DNA of 64,000 bases from Patescibacteria group bacterium. GTDB taxonomy: Bacteria; Patescibacteriota; Saccharimonadia; CAILAD01; BJGX01. Shown piece after piece: positions 2,689 through 29,384 of this stretch. The notes below the pieces were generated by a model. It ran no database searches. It was given only the letters and a program-made list of their open reading frames with translations, and had not been told where the DNA came from. Numbering within the stretch: the stretch's first letter is position 1; each line of letters opens with the position of its first letter. A program made the translations under genes and the position numbers. The stretch lies in the NCBI GenBank assembly GCA_030917065.1, contig JAUPVL010000018.1, positions 2,568 to 66,567 on the forward strand, given 5' to 3'.

Positions 2689-3485
2689 TGAATGTATCTA
2701 ATCCTAGCATGGTGCAGTCGGCGCGAATGACTATAAGTGATGTGTTGGCTATTACTAAGCGAAATCTTATACGATTCAAACGTACACCTGAAATATTGAT
2801 TTTTTCAAGTATTCAACCAGTGATGTTCTTGTTGCTTTTCAATTATGTATTTGGTGGAGCAATAGGTGTAGCTACACCAGGTACTAGCTATATCAATTTC
2901 TTGCTTCCTGGTATCATGGCTCAAACCGCTCTTTTCTCAACACTTCAAACACCTATCGCGCTGGTTGATGATCTAGACAAGGGTGCTATCGATAGGTTCC
3001 GTAGTCTACCGATGAGTCGAGGAGCAGTATTGGCGGGTCGTACGTTCGCAGATAGTCTGCGCTCACTATTTATCGTGGTATTAATGTTTGTGATAGGTAC
3101 ATTACTAGGGTTCAGATACCAAGCAGGCGGGGGAAAAATGATATTGGCGCTTTTGCTCCTAGTGAGTTTTAGCTATGCATTTTCTTGGCTTACAGCTACC
3201 TTGGGGCTTTTTATACGCAATGCCGAAGCAGTACAGACAGCAGGCTTTCTTTTTGTCTTTCCTTTGACATTTGCTAGTTCAGTATTTGTACCTGTTGTTA
3301 CTATGCCAGGATGGTTGCAGGTGTTTGCTCGCAATCAACCCGTCACACAGCTAGTGAATGCCATGCGGGCATTGATGATTGGAGGAGTAGCGATAGATGC
3401 AGTGTACATTACTATTGCATGGACTATAGGTATATTGGTAGTTTTTGTACCGCTCGCTATTTGGAAATTCAAAAGAACTGTTTGA
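2688..3485 (+). CDS. ABC-2 family transporter permease
   Basis: Polytopic membrane protein (about 6 TM). Start overlaps the ATPase stop (ATGA), so translational coupling. Confidence 0.8.
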   Translation: MNVSNPSMVQSARMTISDVLAITKRNLIRFKRTPEILIFSSIQPVMFLLLFNYVFGGAIGVATPGTSYINFLLPGIMAQTALFSTLQTPIALVDDLDKGAIDRFRSLPMSRGAVLAGRTFADSLRSLFIVVLMFVIGTLLGFRYQAGGGKMILALLLLVSFSYAFSWLTATLGLFIRNAEAVQTAGFLFVFPLTFASSVFVPVVTMPGWLQVFARNQPVTQLVNAMRALMIGGVAIDAVYITIAWTIGILVVFVPLAIWKFKRTV

Positions 3486-3624
3486 CATAGACAATCTAGT
3501 GTGTTATTATTATTAGACGTAATTCGTGAATACCGGGTACTTAGTATATATAAGTAAGTTTTAAATCTCGCTGTTCACTTGATAAGCAAGATTACAAATT
3601 TACTAAATATAACATAAGGAATTC

Positions 3625-13500: not shown

Positions 13501-13556
13501 TTTACAGTGGGTATCTGTGGGTATTATAATAGTCTTAGTGGGTAAAAGTGGGTAAG
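13501..13556 (+). promoter_or_regulatory. mraZ promoter with four GTGGG(TA) direct repeats (MraZ operator)
   Basis: GTGGG at 13507-11, 13517-21, 13538-42 and 13548-52, spaced 10/21/10 bp. -35 ttacag (13502-07), 17 bp, TATAAT (13525-30). Confidence 0.55.
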
Positions 13557-22110: not shown

Positions 22111-24813
22111 CTAAGCTTTGTTATTGCTATTACGATCATTACGATTGTTTTTATTACGATTGCGATTTCGACTGTTGGATCCGCTCGAGTTACTATTTGA
22201 ATTTGAATTCTTTTTTATATATTCACTATATTTCTTTGGCTCGGCTCCACTCACCTTTAGACTAGGGTGGGAGTTGTTGTTATTTACATTGTTTTTGGGT
22301 TGTTCGGTATTTGTGCTACTAGTAGATTGCGTACTCCCCTGCCCCTGTTTGTCATTGCCATCATTGCTCATACCACTCCATTTTTCTATTTGAGTCTCTA
22401 CCTCAGACTTACTAGATGCGTATTTTTCTCGACTTTGTTGAATAATTCTCGGTGTCTGGTCGTTGGGTGGCTGAGGCATTAGTAATGTCTTAGCAGAGAA
22501 TGGTAAGCTAGTTTGTCCATCGATGCTCATCGATACGTAGATGTTCTGCTTATCAAGATTGACCAAATCTAGTGGCTCAAATACAGGCTCAAAGTACTTG
22601 GATAGGTAATTTGCATCGTCTGCACCGACCCTAAAGCTAATCATGCTACCGACATTACCAAAAACAGCGTCGCGAACCTCTTCGGGCATCTGAGCTATGT
22701 ATTGATTGGCAACAGTTAGATATAGTCCATACTTACGTGCTTCAGATAAGATTACAGCAAAACTCTCTGTCGCAAAATTTTGGAACTCATCAACATATAA
22801 GTAGAATGGTATCCTATCTTCAATATTTGGAATATCAGCTCGACTCATAGCATCAAGCTGTATCTTGGTGATTATCAAGCTACCCAGTATAGATGCATTG
22901 TCTTCACCAATTTTTCCTCTTGAGAGGTCTACTATCAGTATCTTGCCTTCATCCATTATTTTACGAATGTTAAATGAGCTCTTTTCTTGTCCGAGTACAT
23001 TTCTAATAAGAGGATTGGCAGTGAATGCCCCTACTTTATTAAGTACCGGTGCCACAGCTTCTGATGCGAATTTTTCATTCCAGCTAGCAAATTCATTAAT
23101 CCAGAAGGCTTTAACAACAGGGTCTTTTACGTTGGCGATAATTTCATTTCGATACTTTTTGTCGGTAAGCATACGAACAATACCAAGCAGTGTAGTGTTG
23201 GGCGTTTCTAGTAAGGCAAGCAAGGTGTAACGTAGAATGTGCTCAAGTCGAGGCCCCCAGCTGTCTCCGAACATCTTCTTTAGCACGCCAACTATTTCAG
23301 ATGCTACGTTGTTTCTGCGATTGACGTCCATCACCTCCATAGGGTTGAATGCTACTGGAAAATCGCCATCTGCTGGGTTGAAGTACACTACGTCGTCGAT
23401 ACGGTGTTCGGGTATAAAACGCATAATATCTTGGGCATAGTCGCCGTGAGGATCAACTACCGCAAATCCCTTATTGTGAAAAACATCCGAAAGAGTCAAG
23501 AGATTTAGTAAGAACGACTTACCAACTCCAGATTTACCGATGATATAAAGATGTCGCATCCTATCTTCACGTTTGATTCCAAACTTGGCATTACCTTGTC
23601 TAAAAGTAGTTGTACCGAACAAGCTCAGGCTCTCCGGAGGAGTGTTGGATGCCATAGGGAGATTGCTAGGCGGCTGACCTACCTTAGTGCTTGTATATGC
23701 AACGCCTGGTGTCTCTACGCTAGTGTGAGGCAAATGATAAAGGCTAGCCATCTCTTCGATATTAAGTACATAGCCAGCGTCTTCAAATTTTCTCTCCCTA
23801 TACTCTTCCAGGGCTTTTTCACCAGTCGCTATACTTGTATTAGTAAAGCCATTGAGATTGATGGTATTGAACTGCTTAAATCCACCTACAAGAGCTTGAA
23901 TTCTTTGTTTTGCTATCATATCGTTGTCACCTACATAGATGGCTCGAATTTTCATAGCAAAACCTAGCTTTTGAGCCTTGGTTTCTATTGCAGTATTGAT
24001 AGTAGTTTGGCCGGGAGATAACTCCGGTTTGGACCCCGGCTTGGCATTTGCTGCCTCTACAGATGGAGGTACTGACAGTGCCCTGGCGGCAAATAGCGGA
24101 GCCTTCAGAGCCTTCTTGCCTAGATTGTCAAATACTCCCTCTTTCTTGCCGTTTACGACTTCGTCGATATATTTGAGGCTTTTGGTGTGCCAACTATCAT
24201 CGACTGGCTCCATCAAAAATTGTATCCACATCTGTTCACCTTCTGACATTGATGCAAGTACTGTAGTTAGTCCAGCAAGCGGATCTACCTCAAAAGTTAG
24301 AAATGTTCGAATCGGAAATATCTCATCTTTGGTAAGAGTTATCTCAGTTTCGTATATTTTTTTGTCAGTGAAGTCTTGTTTTGTATAGTCTTCTTCGACT
24401 GAGTTGATCTGAACTGTAGGATATTGTGCGTATATCTGGCTTTCTACAAAATCTTTGAGTTCGGTTGGAACCCAGACATAGAAGTGTATGATTTGATCGA
24501 TAGAGACAATCTCAAAGCTTATGTGATCTTGTAGCTTGGATTCCTGCTGAAGCTCTCCTGTGGGTCGCAATATACCGTGTAGACTAGCAAACATCTGCTC
24601 TGCTGACAATTCTTTCTTATCATTGTCCTTAGGTACTATTATATGTATCAAGCTATACTCAGAAGATTTGCTACCCGTTATCTCAGCTTTGCGATTGTTC
24701 TTCCATATCAAATACACCAATACTGTAGCTATCAGTGTCCAGCCCCAGAATTGAAATAATATAGTGCCAATAATTGAAAACGCTGTGCTGATTATGTTAA
24801 AGATTGTGTCCAT
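22111..24813 (-). CDS. membrane-anchored FtsK/HerA/VirB4-superfamily P-loop ATPase (900 aa) with an N/S/R-rich C-terminal tail
   Basis: Two N-terminal TM helices. About 400-aa N-domain with no recognisable motif. Walker A YIIGKSGVGKSFLLNLL at about residue 430, then VVDPHGDY, Walker B LYVDEFQNF, and a Q-motif-like ARKYGLYLTVANQY (compare FtsK ARAAGIHLVLATQRP). C-terminal about 100 aa is low complexity (NSNSNSNS…RNRNRNKNN). Confidence 0.55.
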   Translation of the reverse strand: MDTIFNIISTAFSIIGTILFQFWGWTLIATVLVYLIWKNNRKAEITGSKSSEYSLIHIIVPKDNDKKELSAEQMFASLHGILRPTGELQQESKLQDHISFEIVSIDQIIHFYVWVPTELKDFVESQIYAQYPTVQINSVEEDYTKQDFTDKKIYETEITLTKDEIFPIRTFLTFEVDPLAGLTTVLASMSEGEQMWIQFLMEPVDDSWHTKSLKYIDEVVNGKKEGVFDNLGKKALKAPLFAARALSVPPSVEAANAKPGSKPELSPGQTTINTAIETKAQKLGFAMKIRAIYVGDNDMIAKQRIQALVGGFKQFNTINLNGFTNTSIATGEKALEEYRERKFEDAGYVLNIEEMASLYHLPHTSVETPGVAYTSTKVGQPPSNLPMASNTPPESLSLFGTTTFRQGNAKFGIKREDRMRHLYIIGKSGVGKSFLLNLLTLSDVFHNKGFAVVDPHGDYAQDIMRFIPEHRIDDVVYFNPADGDFPVAFNPMEVMDVNRRNNVASEIVGVLKKMFGDSWGPRLEHILRYTLLALLETPNTTLLGIVRMLTDKKYRNEIIANVKDPVVKAFWINEFASWNEKFASEAVAPVLNKVGAFTANPLIRNVLGQEKSSFNIRKIMDEGKILIVDLSRGKIGEDNASILGSLIITKIQLDAMSRADIPNIEDRIPFYLYVDEFQNFATESFAVILSEARKYGLYLTVANQYIAQMPEEVRDAVFGNVGSMISFRVGADDANYLSKYFEPVFEPLDLVNLDKQNIYVSMSIDGQTSLPFSAKTLLMPQPPNDQTPRIIQQSREKYASSKSEVETQIEKWSGMSNDGNDKQGQGSTQSTSSTNTEQPKNNVNNNNSHPSLKVSGAEPKKYSEYIKKNSNSNSNSSGSNSRNRNRNKNNRNDRNSNNKA

Positions 24814-24856: not shown

Positions 24857-25930
24857 CTAGCCCTTGTCTCTTCCACCGCGCCTTTTATTTTTTTTTGAAG
24901 TAAGGCCTTCTTTGATGCTATACATATCGTTTTTATCTTTTATAAACTGAGGCTTTTCCTGCAGGTTCAGTGCGATTGTGGTAGTCTTGACCTGTCTTCT
25001 AGCTAGCACCTTAGTGATAATATCCTCTTTACTCAAAGGAGATTTCTCTTTTAGAATCTCTTCTATGATATCAGCGACTGTACCTGGGTTGTATCCCCAT
25101 TCACCGAGAGCATAAATACCCCTACCTATTAGTACGAAACGACCATCTTTAATTAGTTCGTTGTGTACAGCTTGAGTTGTTACATTTTTAGGATTGGCTT
25201 TGAGTTCTGAGATCTTTGTTGAAATCTCACTAAAATGCATGGGTCTAGCGTTTTTCTTAAGTACTAAGTAAATCTTGTCTCGAATGCTTTTGGGATTTAC
25301 TTCTGGCCATACACTCAATCCCCATATATTGTCTAAATTAGATAGGTTTGTACTGGCAAGAGCCAGTTCTTGCAAAGCTTCTTGATTGTGTTTGGGATCT
25401 AATTTTTTTGAAAATTTATCAAAGCGCGATGGTTTGCCGGTCTCACTCACTACAGTTACTAGCTGTTCATGTAGTTTCTTCACTCCATTTTCATTATAAC
25501 TATCACTCAAGAAAAGTAGATCAGCGTGCCCGTCATTTTTGTCAACAAAGGTAAACTTTGGGTTGATCTTAATCAAAAAACTTAAGTGTGGTTGCATCTT
25601 ACCATTCAGATCTAGTTGACTCATTAGTGATGCAAATCCAATAATGCCACCCTTTTCATTGGTAATTGCTATAAGAATATCATTGAGCTCGTGATCGTGG
25701 TTGAACTGTTGTCTTATCTTTGTAATTGCTGCTTTTTCTATCTGTCTTACTCGCTCTCGAGTAATACCCATGTCTTTACCTATTTCTTCAAGGGTCTGCG
25801 AGTTTCCAGTAGCTATACCATAACGGCGTAGCAAGATATCTCTATCGCGGTCTTTCTTGAGTAGGTTCAAGCTATCGTTTATTAGGTTTTCTAGCAGTTT
25901 CTTATCTACTTTGTTTGATTTTACTTTCAT
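24857..25930 (-). CDS. chimeric DNA/RNAP-binding protein: N-terminal sigma-70 region-4 HTH plus C-terminal HARE-HTH (RNAP delta-like)
   Basis: Residues about 25-75 DRDILLRRYGIATGNSQTLEEIGKDMGITRERVRQIEKAAITKIR match sigma70 region 4. C-terminal …MHFSEISTKI…AVHNELIKDGRFVLIGRGIYALGEWGY resembles the RpoE(delta)/HARE-HTH motif DGRFLALSDQTWGLRSWY. Confidence 0.5.
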   Translation of the reverse strand: MKVKSNKVDKKLLENLINDSLNLLKKDRDRDILLRRYGIATGNSQTLEEIGKDMGITRERVRQIEKAAITKIRQQFNHDHELNDILIAITNEKGGIIGFASLMSQLDLNGKMQPHLSFLIKINPKFTFVDKNDGHADLLFLSDSYNENGVKKLHEQLVTVVSETGKPSRFDKFSKKLDPKHNQEALQELALASTNLSNLDNIWGLSVWPEVNPKSIRDKIYLVLKKNARPMHFSEISTKISELKANPKNVTTQAVHNELIKDGRFVLIGRGIYALGEWGYNPGTVADIIEEILKEKSPLSKEDIITKVLARRQVKTTTIALNLQEKPQFIKDKNDMYSIKEGLTSKKNKRRGGRDKG

Positions 25931-25999
25931 AAATAATAAGTACCTTTTTGTTACTGATATTTACTGCTCTACAGGTATAAGAACAGCAAAACTTGTAGT

Positions 26000-26028
26000 A
26001 ATTATATCACTTATAAGCTCGGAGGTCA
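26000..26028 (-). promoter_or_regulatory. consensus sigma-70 promoter (minus strand) for the HTH-protein/ATPase unit
   Basis: Minus-strand reading TTGACC, 17 bp, TATAAT (plus coordinates 26023-28 and 26000-05), about 65 nt upstream of the start at 25930. Confidence 0.45.
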
Positions 26029-26052
26029 ACAATTACAAAGGTATTATAATAG

Positions 26053-28323
26053 CTATTTCTTGGTTTTTTTGGTCTTTTCTTTTAGCATCTTGGTGGCAGC
26101 TTTAACATCAATCTTTTTTGGATCAATATCTTTTGGAATTTTAACATTTGTTTTGCCATCAGTAATGTATGGCCCAAATCGCCCGTTCAACACCTGTATA
26201 TTGACGTCTTCAAAATTTGCTATCACCTTCTCTTTATCTGCTTTTTTCTTCTCATCAATGAGTTCTAATGCCTTTTTAGGAGTAATACTAAAAGGATCCT
26301 CATCTTTGATAGATACAAACTTATCACCGTACTTCACATATGGTCCAAATCTACCGATGTTTGTTGTGACTTCTTCCCCGTCTGCTGTTTTGCCGAGGTC
26401 TCTGGGTAATTTAAACATTTCAAGAGCTTGCTCTAAAGTGACGTTATCAATGGTAGAACCCTCTGGTAAAGGTGCGAATTTTGGCTTTTGCTCGTCTTCA
26501 GCCTGTCCAATTTGTATCATTCCGCCATATCGACCGAGTCGCGCTATGACTGGTTTACCGCTCTTAGGGTCTTTGCCTATTTCTCTAGCTTGACTAGCAT
26601 CTTGTCGACTAATGTCTTCAGAAGCCAAAACGAGCTTGTGAAAAGGCTTATAGAACTCGGATATCATACTGTTCCATTTCATCTTGCCTTCTGCTATCTT
26701 GTCGAATTCTTCCTCGGCCCTTACGGTAAATTTATAATCGACAATATCGGGAAAATACTTTACTAAAAAATCAGTGACTATCTTACCAGTATCTGTTGGG
26801 AATAGTTTATTTTTTTCTACACCGAAGTTTTCTTGCTCTGTCTCTGACGATATTTTGTTGTTAACAAGATTGATAATATCAACATCTCTTGGAGCACCTT
26901 CTCTACTCGCCTTTTCCACATATTCTCTATACTGGATAGTAGATATGGTTGGCGCATATGTACTAGGTCTTCCTATACCTTCAGATTCCAACTTTTTCAC
27001 CAGGCTAGCTTCAGTGTATCTCGCAGGTGGCTTATCAAACACACTTCTGGCAGAGACTCTGGTGTTTTCAATCTTTTGCCCCACATTTAATGGTGGCAGT
27101 ATAGTGTCGTCCGTCATCTTGCCGTACACTTTCAAGAAACCGTCAAAAACAATTATTTCACCTTTGGCTACGAACTTAGCATCATTTTTGTTATTTTGGA
27201 TAATCACTGTAGTCCTCTCGGTCTTGGCTTCGCTCATCTGGGAAGCTAATGCCCGAGCTCTTATGAGTTGATATAGCTTCTGTTCTCTCGAATCACTACT
27301 ACCCTTTTCGCTGGAAAAATCAGTAGGCCTGATGGCTTCGTGAGCTTCTTGGGCGCCTGCAGATTTTGTTTTGAAATGCCTTGTTTTTAAGTACTGCTCG
27401 CCATAGTTCGATAGAATGGTTTTTTCGGCTTGAGCAATAGCCGTGCTTGAGAGGTTGAGAGAATCAGTGCGCATATAGGTGATCTTACCTGCTTCATAGA
27501 GTTTTTGGGCTACAACCATAGTTTGGCGGACTGAAAAACCAAGCTTATTACTAGCTACCTGTTGCAGGGTAGATGTTGTAAATGGTGGCGGTGGTGATTT
27601 CTTACCGTCTTTTTTCTCTAGTGAGCCAACACTATATTCTGCACTTATTAGACTTTCCAAAAATTCTTGAGCATCTTTTTTTGTTGCTAGTTTATCTTTG
27701 AGCTCAGCTATTAGTAGCCCATCTTTTTTAAGATCGAATTCTGCAACTACTTTGTAGCTAGATTTAGCAACAAATGCTTCAATCTCTCTTTCACGCTCCA
27801 CAATGATTCTCACAGCGACAGACTGTACCCTACCTGCACTTAAGCCTCGACGGATTTTCTTCATTAGCACTGGGCTGAGTTCATATCCAACTAGCCTATC
27901 TAATACCCTACGGGCTTGTTGGGCATTTACAAGATTGATATCAACTTTTCTAGGGTTGTTCACAGCATCAAGCAAAGCTTGTTTGGTTATCTCATGAAAT
28001 ACAATTCTTTTGGTTGTGCCGGGGTCTAGCTTGAGCGCCTGACATAGGTGCCAGCTGATAGCCTCTCCTTCACGGTCTTCATCAGTTGCAAGTAGCACAG
28101 TCTTGCCTTTGACGGCTTTTCTAAGTGCTGCAATCGTCTTTTTCGAGTCTACAGGTATCTCATAGGTTGGTTCAAAATTCTTTTCTACATCGATATTTAG
28201 ACCACTTTTGGGTAAATCTCTGATATGACCATAGCTCGAAAGCACTTGGTAATCTGATCCCAGATATTTCTCAATGGTCTTGGCTTTTGCCGGTGATTCT
28301 ACAATAAGTAAGTTTTTTGCCAT
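26053..28323 (-). CDS. topA: DNA topoisomerase I
   Basis: N-terminal Toprim MAKNLLIVESPAKAKTIEKYLG…YGHIRDL, topo IA core, C-terminal repeat region. Confidence 0.9.
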   Translation of the reverse strand: MAKNLLIVESPAKAKTIEKYLGSDYQVLSSYGHIRDLPKSGLNIDVEKNFEPTYEIPVDSKKTIAALRKAVKGKTVLLATDEDREGEAISWHLCQALKLDPGTTKRIVFHEITKQALLDAVNNPRKVDINLVNAQQARRVLDRLVGYELSPVLMKKIRRGLSAGRVQSVAVRIIVEREREIEAFVAKSSYKVVAEFDLKKDGLLIAELKDKLATKKDAQEFLESLISAEYSVGSLEKKDGKKSPPPPFTTSTLQQVASNKLGFSVRQTMVVAQKLYEAGKITYMRTDSLNLSSTAIAQAEKTILSNYGEQYLKTRHFKTKSAGAQEAHEAIRPTDFSSEKGSSDSREQKLYQLIRARALASQMSEAKTERTTVIIQNNKNDAKFVAKGEIIVFDGFLKVYGKMTDDTILPPLNVGQKIENTRVSARSVFDKPPARYTEASLVKKLESEGIGRPSTYAPTISTIQYREYVEKASREGAPRDVDIINLVNNKISSETEQENFGVEKNKLFPTDTGKIVTDFLVKYFPDIVDYKFTVRAEEEFDKIAEGKMKWNSMISEFYKPFHKLVLASEDISRQDASQAREIGKDPKSGKPVIARLGRYGGMIQIGQAEDEQKPKFAPLPEGSTIDNVTLEQALEMFKLPRDLGKTADGEEVTTNIGRFGPYVKYGDKFVSIKDEDPFSITPKKALELIDEKKKADKEKVIANFEDVNIQVLNGRFGPYITDGKTNVKIPKDIDPKKIDVKAATKMLKEKTKKTKK

Positions 28324-28447
28324 ATATTTTCTAAAATGCTAACGTTATTTTTATAATAATGCAAGTTTAGTGCATAAGTTGCAAATAATAACAGTGATGC
28401 TGACGCCTTGTCAAATATTTATTAATCTATTGGAACTGATAGTCTAT

Positions 28448-29299
28448 CTAGTTTACTATCCATTGTCCCGCGCCAAGATTACGAATCTTACCTGTTATCT
28501 CCATCAGGCTCAATATATGCGCAAGCTGGGGTGCATCAAAGTTGCTATTATCTATGATAGTTTGCATGGTGTTGTGTCCTTCTTCAATCAAACCTATTAT
28601 CTGCGCTTCTTCTTGGCTAGCGGGTAAGGTTTTGGCTGTCTTTAAAGCACTGCTTTTCAGATCTAGCTCTGCAAGTACATCTGTAGCGTTTGTGACAAGC
28701 TTGGCCCCTAGTTTGATGAGATTATTTGGTCCTGCTGAACGAGGATTAGTAATATTGCCTGGCACAGCCATGACCATACGGTCATTATTAATTGCAAAAT
28801 TAGCAGTTATAAGACTACCGCTCTTGGCATCAGCCTCGGTAATGATGGTTGCAATACTTAGCCCAGCTATTATGCGATTACGAGCTGGAAAATTGAATCT
28901 TTGTGTACTCTGTCCTACTTCGTACTCACTTATTATCGCTCCGCCAGCACTCAATATAGATTTTGCAAGATTGCGATTTGCAGCTGGGTATATAGTATTT
29001 AGGGGTGTTCCTAGGACTGCCACTACCTTTCCTTTGGCATCTATGGCTGCCTTGTGCGCAATAGCATCTATACCGTATGCCAAGCCACTTACCAAGCATA
29101 TGCCGGCGCTAGCTAGGTCGTACGCTAGCCTATAAGTAATCTGTTCGCCATAACTAGATGGTCTGCGGGTGCCAACAATAGCTATCATCGGTAGATCTGG
29201 TATTTCACCCAAACAGTATAATTTCTTGGGCGGTGATGATATGGATCGCAATAACTCCGGAAAACTATTGCTTTTATATGTAATATCTTGTATATTCAT
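28448..29299 (-). CDS. dprA: DNA processing protein DprA (Smf)
   Basis: Rossmann-like DprA core IAIVGTRRPSSYGEQ…VSGLAYGIDAIAHKAA. Conserved dprA-topA linkage. Confidence 0.85.
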   Translation of the reverse strand: MNIQDITYKSNSFPELLRSISSPPKKLYCLGEIPDLPMIAIVGTRRPSSYGEQITYRLAYDLASAGICLVSGLAYGIDAIAHKAAIDAKGKVVAVLGTPLNTIYPAANRNLAKSILSAGGAIISEYEVGQSTQRFNFPARNRIIAGLSIATIITEADAKSGSLITANFAINNDRMVMAVPGNITNPRSAGPNNLIKLGAKLVTNATDVLAELDLKSSALKTAKTLPASQEEAQIIGLIEEGHNTMQTIIDNSNFDAPQLAHILSLMEITGKIRNLGAGQWIVN

Positions 29300-29355: not shown

Positions 29356-29384
29356 TTGACAAATAAGCGTAACAGTGATACAAT
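29356..29384 (+). promoter_or_regulatory. perfect-consensus sigma-70 promoter TTGACA-N17-TACAAT (plus strand)
   Basis: ttgaca (29356-61), 17 nt, tacaat (29379-84). The minus strand reads TTGTCA-N17-AATAAT at the same place, a possible dprA promoter. Confidence 0.4.

Follow-up and report, generated by a model that had tools for sequence, protein, structure and literature searches.

A lineage-wide Patescibacteria protein family that joins sigma-70 domain 4 to an array of winged helices including HARE-HTH

What kind of protein carries the promoter-reading module of a sigma factor without the remainder of that factor is the question raised by a gene in a 64,000-nucleotide stretch of Patescibacteria DNA (contig JAUPVL010000018.1 of assembly GCA_030917065.1), the whole of which is called the window here. 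The gene, on the minus strand at 24857..25930, encodes a protein of 357 amino acids (aa), for which the original prediction, made from the sequence alone, proposed a fusion of sigma-70 region 4 with a HARE-HTH domain like that of the RNA polymerase (RNAP) delta subunit, and a role as an anti-sigma-like decoy, an RNAP accessory factor or a promoter-binding regulator. The analysis presented here places the window protein in a catalogued, uncharacterised Patescibacteria family of sigma-4/HARE-HTH proteins (SEML1_0294-like) and favors promoter-DNA binding over the decoy and accessory options, on the grounds of the invariant -35-contacting residues and of a basic charge that sets the protein apart from the acidic delta subunit.

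Both predicted domains were recovered by the profile check that had been suggested for them, with scores above the curated Pfam cut-offs. Sigma70_r4 (PF04545) matches aa 27-74 with 52.6 bits (gathering cut-off 24.1, E=3.2e-14) and HARE-HTH (PF05066) matches aa 218-278 with 31.2 bits (cut-off 25.9, E=3e-7), and the predicted lack of sigma regions 1-3 agrees with the absence of any sigma region 2 or region 3 match at E<=1 in the Pfam scan of the protein. The main RpoD and RpoS models of NCBIfam gave approximately 50-54 bits against cut-offs of 354-555, with just the C-terminal ~70 model positions matched, and TIGR02937 gave 37.0 bits against a cut-off of 42.9; the N-domain of the NCBIfam model for the low-GC RNAP delta subunit (RpoE, TIGR04567) reached 36.7 bits, under its cut-off of 42. 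The co-occurrence of the two domains is not a chance match, since at least 7,999 database proteins are homologous at E<=1e-3 and, among those listed, nearly all carry both PF04545 and PF05066. The architecture is nevertheless richer than the two-domain fusion originally described, comprising the following parts, all on the minus strand:

24857..25930, minus strand: intact open reading frame with an ATG start, 357 aa, encoding sigma domain 4, four winged helices and a basic tail
25697..25918, minus strand: sigma-70 region 4 (domain 4), approximately aa 5-78, from Pfam, Protein Data Bank (PDB) profile matches and Foldseek
25733..25762, minus strand: recognition helix TRERVRQIEK, aa 57-66, the counterpart of the sigma-70 helix that reads the -35 element, from alignment
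25499..25696, minus strand: winged helix 1, aa 79-144, acidic (isoelectric point, pI, 5.0) and variable, from AlphaFold2 secondary structure, with no Pfam match
25310..25498, minus strand: winged helix 2, aa 145-207, variable, from the AlphaFold2 model, with no Pfam match
25085..25309, minus strand: winged helix 3, the HARE-HTH domain, aa 208-282, basic and highly conserved with many invariant residues, from PF05066
24908..25084, minus strand: winged helix 4, aa 283-341, conserved, from the AlphaFold2 model
24860..24907, minus strand: basic C-terminal tail, aa 342-357, net charge +6, present in part of the family only, from alignment

These parts were delimited with the structure prediction that the original prediction had called for, an AlphaFold2 model built on a 62-sequence alignment (mean predicted local distance difference test score, pLDDT, 86; predicted template modelling score, pTM, 0.66), in which a four-helix sigma domain 4 at aa ~10-75 is followed by the four winged helices, with the winged-helix topology of HARE-HTH spanning aa 216-275, and by a short, basic, disordered tail. 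Winged helix 4 gave a weak, partial Pfam match to HARE-HTH (14.3 bits, E=0.054) and is possibly a second, divergent HARE-like domain. The predicted DGRF…G.W.G.W motif was borne out as a delta-like wing motif, DGRFVLIGRGIYALGEWGY (aa 262-280), but not in its literal G.W.G.W form, nor does the domain lie at the C-terminus, HARE-HTH being the third of the four winged helices. The protein as a whole has a net charge of +15 and a pI of 9.6, with sigma domain 4 contributing +7, the HARE domain +5 and the tail +6.

Sigma domain 4 of the window protein is genuine and of the group-1 type. The family profile matches region 4 of RpoS, SigA and RpoD chains in the PDB with E-values down to 9e-15, and Foldseek aligned the predicted domain with sigma-A domain 4 structures at a root-mean-square deviation (rmsd) of 1.7-2.3 Å and 34-45% identity, with phage Sigma70_r4-only proteins also among the fold matches. 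For winged helices 3-4 the only meaningful profile match in the PDB was the RNAP delta subunit of S. aureus (8x6g_E), at a marginal E=0.06. The whole of aa 79-341 resembles tandem winged-helix arrays (SelB C-terminus, RPC62, Dcc1, UFL1-DDRGK1; Foldseek E 2e-5 to 2e-3), which indicates a shared architecture and is no evidence of a shared function, as identities are 10-13% and TM-scores 0.16-0.25.

Conservation across the family points to the same surface that sigma factors use on promoters. In an alignment of 48 sequences spanning the family (30-74% identical to the window protein), the invariant residues of sigma domain 4 are R36, L47, G51, R58, E59, R60, R62 and Q63, the last five of which all sit in the recognition helix TRERVRQIE; the helix is identical to the TRERVRQI of RpoS in the PDB alignment and near the sigma-70 consensus. 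We take R58, E59, R60, R62 and Q63 to be the equivalents of R584, E585, R586, R588 and Q589 of E. coli sigma-70, which contact the -35 element. Protein docking alone would not call for their invariance. The remaining invariant positions lie mostly in the HARE domain and winged helix 4, with winged helices 1 and 2 being variable.

The original prediction implied that the combination of domains is unusual, a view that does not survive the database searches, as the family is large, catalogued and spread across Patescibacteria. Its homologues are approximately 335-390 aa long with a constant architecture, an N-terminal Sigma70_r4 and HARE-HTH in the C-terminal half, and in the first protein search the organisms named among the listed homologues were Candidatus Saccharibacteria. 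When aa 81-357 alone were compared with 1.84 billion cluster representatives, 437 matched at E<=1e-30 and 773 at E<=1e-10. The search for orthologs and their partners proposed in the original prediction was run as a scan with a single genome for each GTDB species. Of 599 stretches matched, 595 hold relatives, which places the family in at least 595 species genomes, and a recurrent ATPase neighbor described below was seen as well; nearly all of the best 80 of these at least 595 relatives are labelled Saccharibacteria or Saccharimonadia, and a high-GC clade (P0201) is Saccharibacteria too. One divergent member (P0266), with 36% identity to the window protein over aa 81-357, has neighbors whose names place them in the Parcubacteria group, the Patescibacteria group and Candidatus Andersenbacteria, and this indicates that the family spans the candidate phyla radiation. 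Within the window itself, tblastn with four segments of the protein found no second sigma-4 gene and no rpoD.

Two members bear labels from outside Patescibacteria, Propionibacteriaceae (P0275) and Candidatus Dormibacteraeota (P0395 and its locus L089), and the neighborhood in L089 resembles other Patescibacteria loci in comprising topA, the family gene, a DUF8128/TrwB-like gene, ftsQ, murG and ftsW. These labels may be binning errors, for example from an epibiont contig binned with its actinobacterial host. A separate observation concerns a Patescibacteria contig on which a 477-aa protein is encoded approximately 1.9 kb upstream of a family member (L090:1704-3137, plus strand); its N-terminal ~320 aa have no assignment and are followed by Sigma70_r4 (37 bits) and the RNAP alpha C-terminal domain (76 bits). 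This protein represents a second, separate family of RNAP promoter-contact modules, with sigma domain 4 as the sole shared part. The abstract of a 2012 study by Aravind and Iyer is said to describe bacterial HARE-HTH proteins that mix features of the RNAP alpha subunit and of sigma. Our literature searches found no paper joining HARE-HTH with Sigma70_r4 or Patescibacteria with sigma region 4, no paper on DUF8128, no account of what the family does, and nothing relevant on RpoS in Saccharibacteria. As far as these searches reached, three features are new, namely that the -35-reading residues are invariant throughout the family, that a consensus promoter of the family gene is conserved and that so is its operon with a DUF8128/TrwB-like ATPase, the last two being described below.

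Besides 'sigma factor-like HTH DNA-binding protein', a name used for the family, the database names of its members are inconsistent and in many cases wrong: 'RNA polymerase sigma factor RpoS', 'HTH domain-containing protein', 'CsgD family transcriptional regulator', 'DNA-directed RNA polymerase delta subunit' and 'Holliday junction resolvasome RuvABC DNA-binding subunit'. The labels 'RpoS' and 'RNA polymerase delta subunit' are both wrong, and the window protein is a member of neither the sigma-70 nor the delta family. With region 4 of the primary sigma factors (sigma-70, SigA, RpoS) it shares a fold and clear homology, at best 45% identity and 1.7 Å rmsd with S. aureus sigma-A domain 4, and a recognition helix that fits the group-1 consensus; unlike sigma factors, it lacks regions 1.2, 2 and 3 and carries domain 4 at the N-terminus, ahead of four winged helices. 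The missing regions imply that the protein neither binds core RNAP through a sigma domain 2 nor melts the -10 element. A frameshifted or truncated sigma factor, the alternative that the original prediction had named, was rejected, as remnants of regions 2 and 3 are absent from both the protein and the upstream DNA, where the stop codon of topA and the promoter of the family gene lie, and the homologues are uniform in length.

Similarity to the delta subunit of Firmicutes (RpoE) is confined to a HARE-HTH winged helix with the wing motif D-x-RF ... G ... W/Y ... L ... W. Delta is a protein of ~170 aa whose N-terminal HARE domain docks on RNAP between the shelf and the jaw of beta-prime; nucleic acids are displaced by its C-terminal region, which is polyanionic (net charge -47) (PMC7749165). 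The window protein, in contrast, is basic, has no acidic tail, carries HARE as its fourth module rather than at the N-terminus, and scores under the delta model cut-off; it was therefore rejected as a delta orthologue. A region-4-like module outside a complete sigma factor is also found in SigO (with RsoA), phage T4 gp33 and phage Sigma70_r4-only proteins. SigO of B. subtilis needs RsoA, the bearer of region 2, and the partner of gp33 is gp55. Winged-helix arrays are absent from all of these proteins, and a two-subunit sigma of the SigO-RsoA type was rejected because a partner with region 2 only is unannotated in the published annotation of one species, Southlakia epibionticum. Combined, these comparisons leave it exceedingly improbable that the protein is a truncated or frameshifted sigma factor, a half sigma of the SigO-RsoA type or a delta orthologue; automatic annotations as 'RpoS' or 'RNA polymerase delta subunit' speak for such an identity, but sigma domain 4 is followed in the AlphaFold2 model by beta-containing winged helices and not by sigma domains 2 or 3, and with no region 2/3 remnants, uniform homologues and a delta score below the cut-off it is effectively refuted.

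Experimental data are available for the counterpart in S. epibionticum ML1, SEML1_0294, a protein of 349 aa annotated as 'RNA polymerase sigma factor RpoS' (Wang et al., Cell 2023, PMC10633639). Its Pfam matches (PF04545 at 27-72 and PF05066 at 225-283) and domain parse (one tri-helical and three winged domains) are given in the same study, in which the gene is flanked by the coupling-protein-like SEML1_0293 on one side and, apart from one inserted hydrolase gene, by topA (SEML1_0296) on the other (PMC10633639, Table S1). By transposon sequencing SEML1_0294 was called essential at each of three time points (input DNA held 24 insertions, and 1, 1 and 2 were recovered), and it is flagged as a Patescibacteria-enriched core family (PMC10633639, Tables S1 and S2), although it goes undiscussed in the text of that paper. 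SEML1_0293 is likewise in a Patescibacteria-enriched core family and is non-essential, though its reads drop from 5817 to 2940 to 1372 (PMC10633639); since this downstream gene is non-essential, the essentiality of SEML1_0294 is not a polar effect. The type IV secretion system of S. epibionticum is stated to lack a recognisable coupling protein, and SEML1_0293 is annotated as one in the table of the same paper (PMC10633639). In the annotation table PF04542 and the label 'Sigma2 domain' occur once each, both for RpoD, SEML1_0063 (PMC10633639), and with RpoD as the sole sigma-2-containing protein, S. epibionticum has one sigma factor.

The promoter of the family gene is itself distinctive. Within the 122-bp gap that follows topA, the window gene has its own sigma-70-type promoter, one of five sites in the whole window that match the sigma-70 consensus at 11 or more of 12 positions:

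26001..26029, minus strand: promoter of the family gene, TTGACC, a 17-nt spacer and a TG-extended TATAAT, 11/12 match to consensus
28385-28414, minus strand: site of >=11/12 from the consensus scan
29356-29384, plus strand: site of >=11/12 from the consensus scan
3482-3510, plus strand: site of >=11/12 from the consensus scan
13501-13530, plus strand: site of >=11/12 from the consensus scan

As an observation on the window alone, one of the five sites lies just upstream of topA and another is directed away from dprA on the opposite strand. Across 93 loci, the 200 bp upstream of each gene were scored for a 12-position match to TTGACA/TATAAT, with 505 other genes of the same loci as the comparison. 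The family gene has a promoter of at least 11/12 in 72 of the 93 loci and a perfect TTGACA/TATAAT in 36, 31 of these with a 17-nt spacer; among the other genes, 21 of 505 (4%) reach 11/12 and none is perfect. Canonical TTGACA/TATAAT promoters are in use in the window and its relatives, and the near-consensus promoter of the family gene suggests that the gene is very highly expressed, that a perfect -35 is functionally required, or that both are true.

When 76 distinct upstream regions were aligned on the -35, they showed an A-rich upstream tract, the -35, a motif in the -16 region and the -10. A second extended -10-like element (TGCTATAAT or TGCTACAAT) occurs in 29 of 87 loci, mostly ~28 nt upstream of the -35 and often preceded by a TTTACC-like hexamer (loci including L021, L024, L025, L028, L031, L033 and L037), which suggests a tandem promoter; the element is absent from the window. 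The 5' leader (25925-25995, minus strand) could form an 11-bp hairpin that is not significant (z = -1.2) and matched no Rfam family, the Rfam scan of the whole window returning a single tRNA.

The genes around the family gene are also conserved, and in the window they are as follows:

26053..29299, minus strand: upstream context, topA at 26053-28323 and dprA at 28448-29299, from Pfam
22111..24813, minus strand: 900-aa membrane-anchored ATPase resembling type IV coupling proteins (TrwB/VirD4), from Pfam TrwB_AAD_bind, DUF87 and TraG-D_C

The ATPase gene starts 43 bp downstream of the family gene, with no terminator-like site in the gap, and is probably co-transcribed with it. Among 80 loci from Saccharibacteria, the recurrent order is dprA, topA, family gene and coupling-protein-like gene, with topA upstream in 69, dprA upstream in 50 and the ATPase gene directly downstream in approximately 60 of the 80; about 15 of the 80, and the high-GC clade (L081), keep the family gene without an adjoining ATPase. 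In a second set of ten divergent loci, a DUF8128 and TrwB_AAD_bind gene lies directly downstream in 10/10, in the same orientation and at a distance of 7-155 bp; it is fused (919-1206 aa) or, in three loci, divided into separate DUF8128 and ATPase genes. Two divergent loci from Patescibacteria share the dprA/topA order. In none of 62 copies does the ATPase gene have its own promoter of at least 11/12. The encoded protein has an N-terminal hydrophobic segment, and its relatives carry DUF8128 ahead of a TrwB/VirD4-like P-loop domain; the copy in the window ends in a basic tail of low complexity that is rich in Asn and Ser. No relaxase Pfam family was found among the neighbors listed for the ten divergent loci, and no oriT-like conserved repeat in the -35-anchored upstream regions. 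Related ATPase genes (strand not given) are:

L083:7250-10225, related ATPase gene
L085:7135-10269, related ATPase gene
L086:7142-10456, related ATPase gene
L092:6109-9511, related ATPase gene

From these results we infer the DNA specificity, autoregulation and global transcription role of the family, and our tentative preference is for an abundant, basic DNA-binding protein that reads -35-like hexamers, acts on transcription initiation and probably autoregulates its consensus promoter. The sigma-domain-4 module would read TTGAC hexamers in the manner of region 4 of a primary sigma factor, and the winged-helix array, above all HARE-HTH and the fourth winged helix, would add contacts to DNA or to a partner. 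The protein might then compete or cooperate with the single sigma-A holoenzyme at -35 elements and so affect initiation, with probable negative feedback on its own promoter, which would also drive the downstream ATPase gene. Several points weigh against this reading. An isolated sigma domain 4 binds -35 DNA weakly, and no separate operator was found near the promoter in the 76 aligned upstream regions. Occupancy of -35 elements across the genome implies competition with sigma-A, which leaves the essentiality unexplained, and a purely transcriptional role does not account for the strict operon link to a coupling-protein-like ATPase. Additionally, the residue equivalence with E. coli sigma-70 is based on structures of sigma-70 with -35 DNA and not on a contact calculation, and the orthology of SEML1_0294 is judged from Pfam coordinates, its 349-aa length and its gene neighbors.

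Two other readings divide the same evidence, the invariant DNA-contact residues favoring DNA binding and the operon link favoring an adaptor of the ATPase. The window protein could instead be an RNAP-bound accessory subunit, with sigma domain 4 on the beta-flap tip, as for sigma region 4 and gp33, and HARE-HTH on beta-prime, acting as a sigma-region-4 decoy or as a general initiation/recycling factor. This is unlikely in our judgment, although region 4.1 retains the sigma pattern LxxLxxRxRxIxxxRFGL, region 4.1 being the flap-binding surface in holoenzyme structures, and essentiality and a very strong promoter suit a stoichiometric RNAP partner. The nearest solved HARE relative is moreover RNAP delta, whose N-domain sits at the beta-prime shelf and jaw (PMC7749165). 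Flap docking, however, does not account for the invariant DNA-contact residues of the recognition helix, the protein is basic and lacks the acidic C-terminal region that carries the activity of delta, the similarity to delta is marginal (under the NCBIfam cut-off, E=0.06 against the PDB), and simultaneous binding to the flap tip and the beta-prime jaw looks improbable, since RNAP carries them at opposite ends.

The protein might also serve the adjacent ATPase as a dedicated DNA-binding adaptor or regulator, either an analogue of TraM or TrwA or a repressor of the operon, in which case essentiality would reflect toxicity of the ATPase upon loss of the regulator. Like the family gene, TraM and TrwA are encoded beside a TrwB/VirD4-type ATPase and probably co-transcribed with it, and TraM- and TrwA-type proteins regulate their own promoters too. 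The same-strand adjacency in 10/10 divergent and ~60/80 Saccharibacteria loci, the lack of an own >=11/12 promoter at the ATPase gene, an operon promoter near enough to consensus that loss of repression could harm, and the placement of both S. epibionticum genes in Patescibacteria-enriched core families are all in keeping with such a role, which we nonetheless regard as improbable. The gene is kept without an adjacent ATPase in ~15/80 Saccharibacteria loci and in the high-GC clade, the ATPase is dispensable and the regulator essential, so that toxicity has to be assumed in addition, and relaxase families are absent from the Pfam lists of the ten divergent loci, as is an oriT-like repeat upstream. 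The differences from TraM and TrwA extend to the protein itself, which has sigma domain 4 and winged helices in place of a ribbon-helix-helix, a -35-type recognition helix not used by known relaxosome accessory proteins, and a chromosomal, lineage-wide gene.

A broader possibility, which we hold to be rather doubtful, is that the family represents a hitherto unrecognised general transcription factor, essential to bacteria of the candidate phyla radiation, that provides sigma region 4 in trans on the -35, on the RNAP beta-flap, or on both, and thereby sets the activity of the single sigma-A holoenzyme of the lineage. Such a factor might, through its obligate operon partner, link a membrane-anchored, DNA-translocase-like ATPase with promoter DNA or with transcription. 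CarD and RbpA of Actinobacteria offer a functional analogy only, as conserved, essential, lineage-restricted modules that contact DNA or RNAP; there is no homology to them, and RNAP binding by the present family is hypothetical.

The ultra-small Patescibacteria account for much of bacterial diversity, with genomes of ~1 Mb and a single sigma factor in the cultivated species examined. In this setting, the family combines lineage-wide distribution and essentiality in the one species tested with a build based on the part of sigma that reads promoters, with a promoter better than any other nearby and with a tie to a lineage-specific membrane ATPase. For annotation, the labels 'RpoS' and 'RNA polymerase delta subunit' now attached to its members are incorrect; for the biology of these organisms, the family is a genetically tractable entry point to the control of transcription in Patescibacteria.

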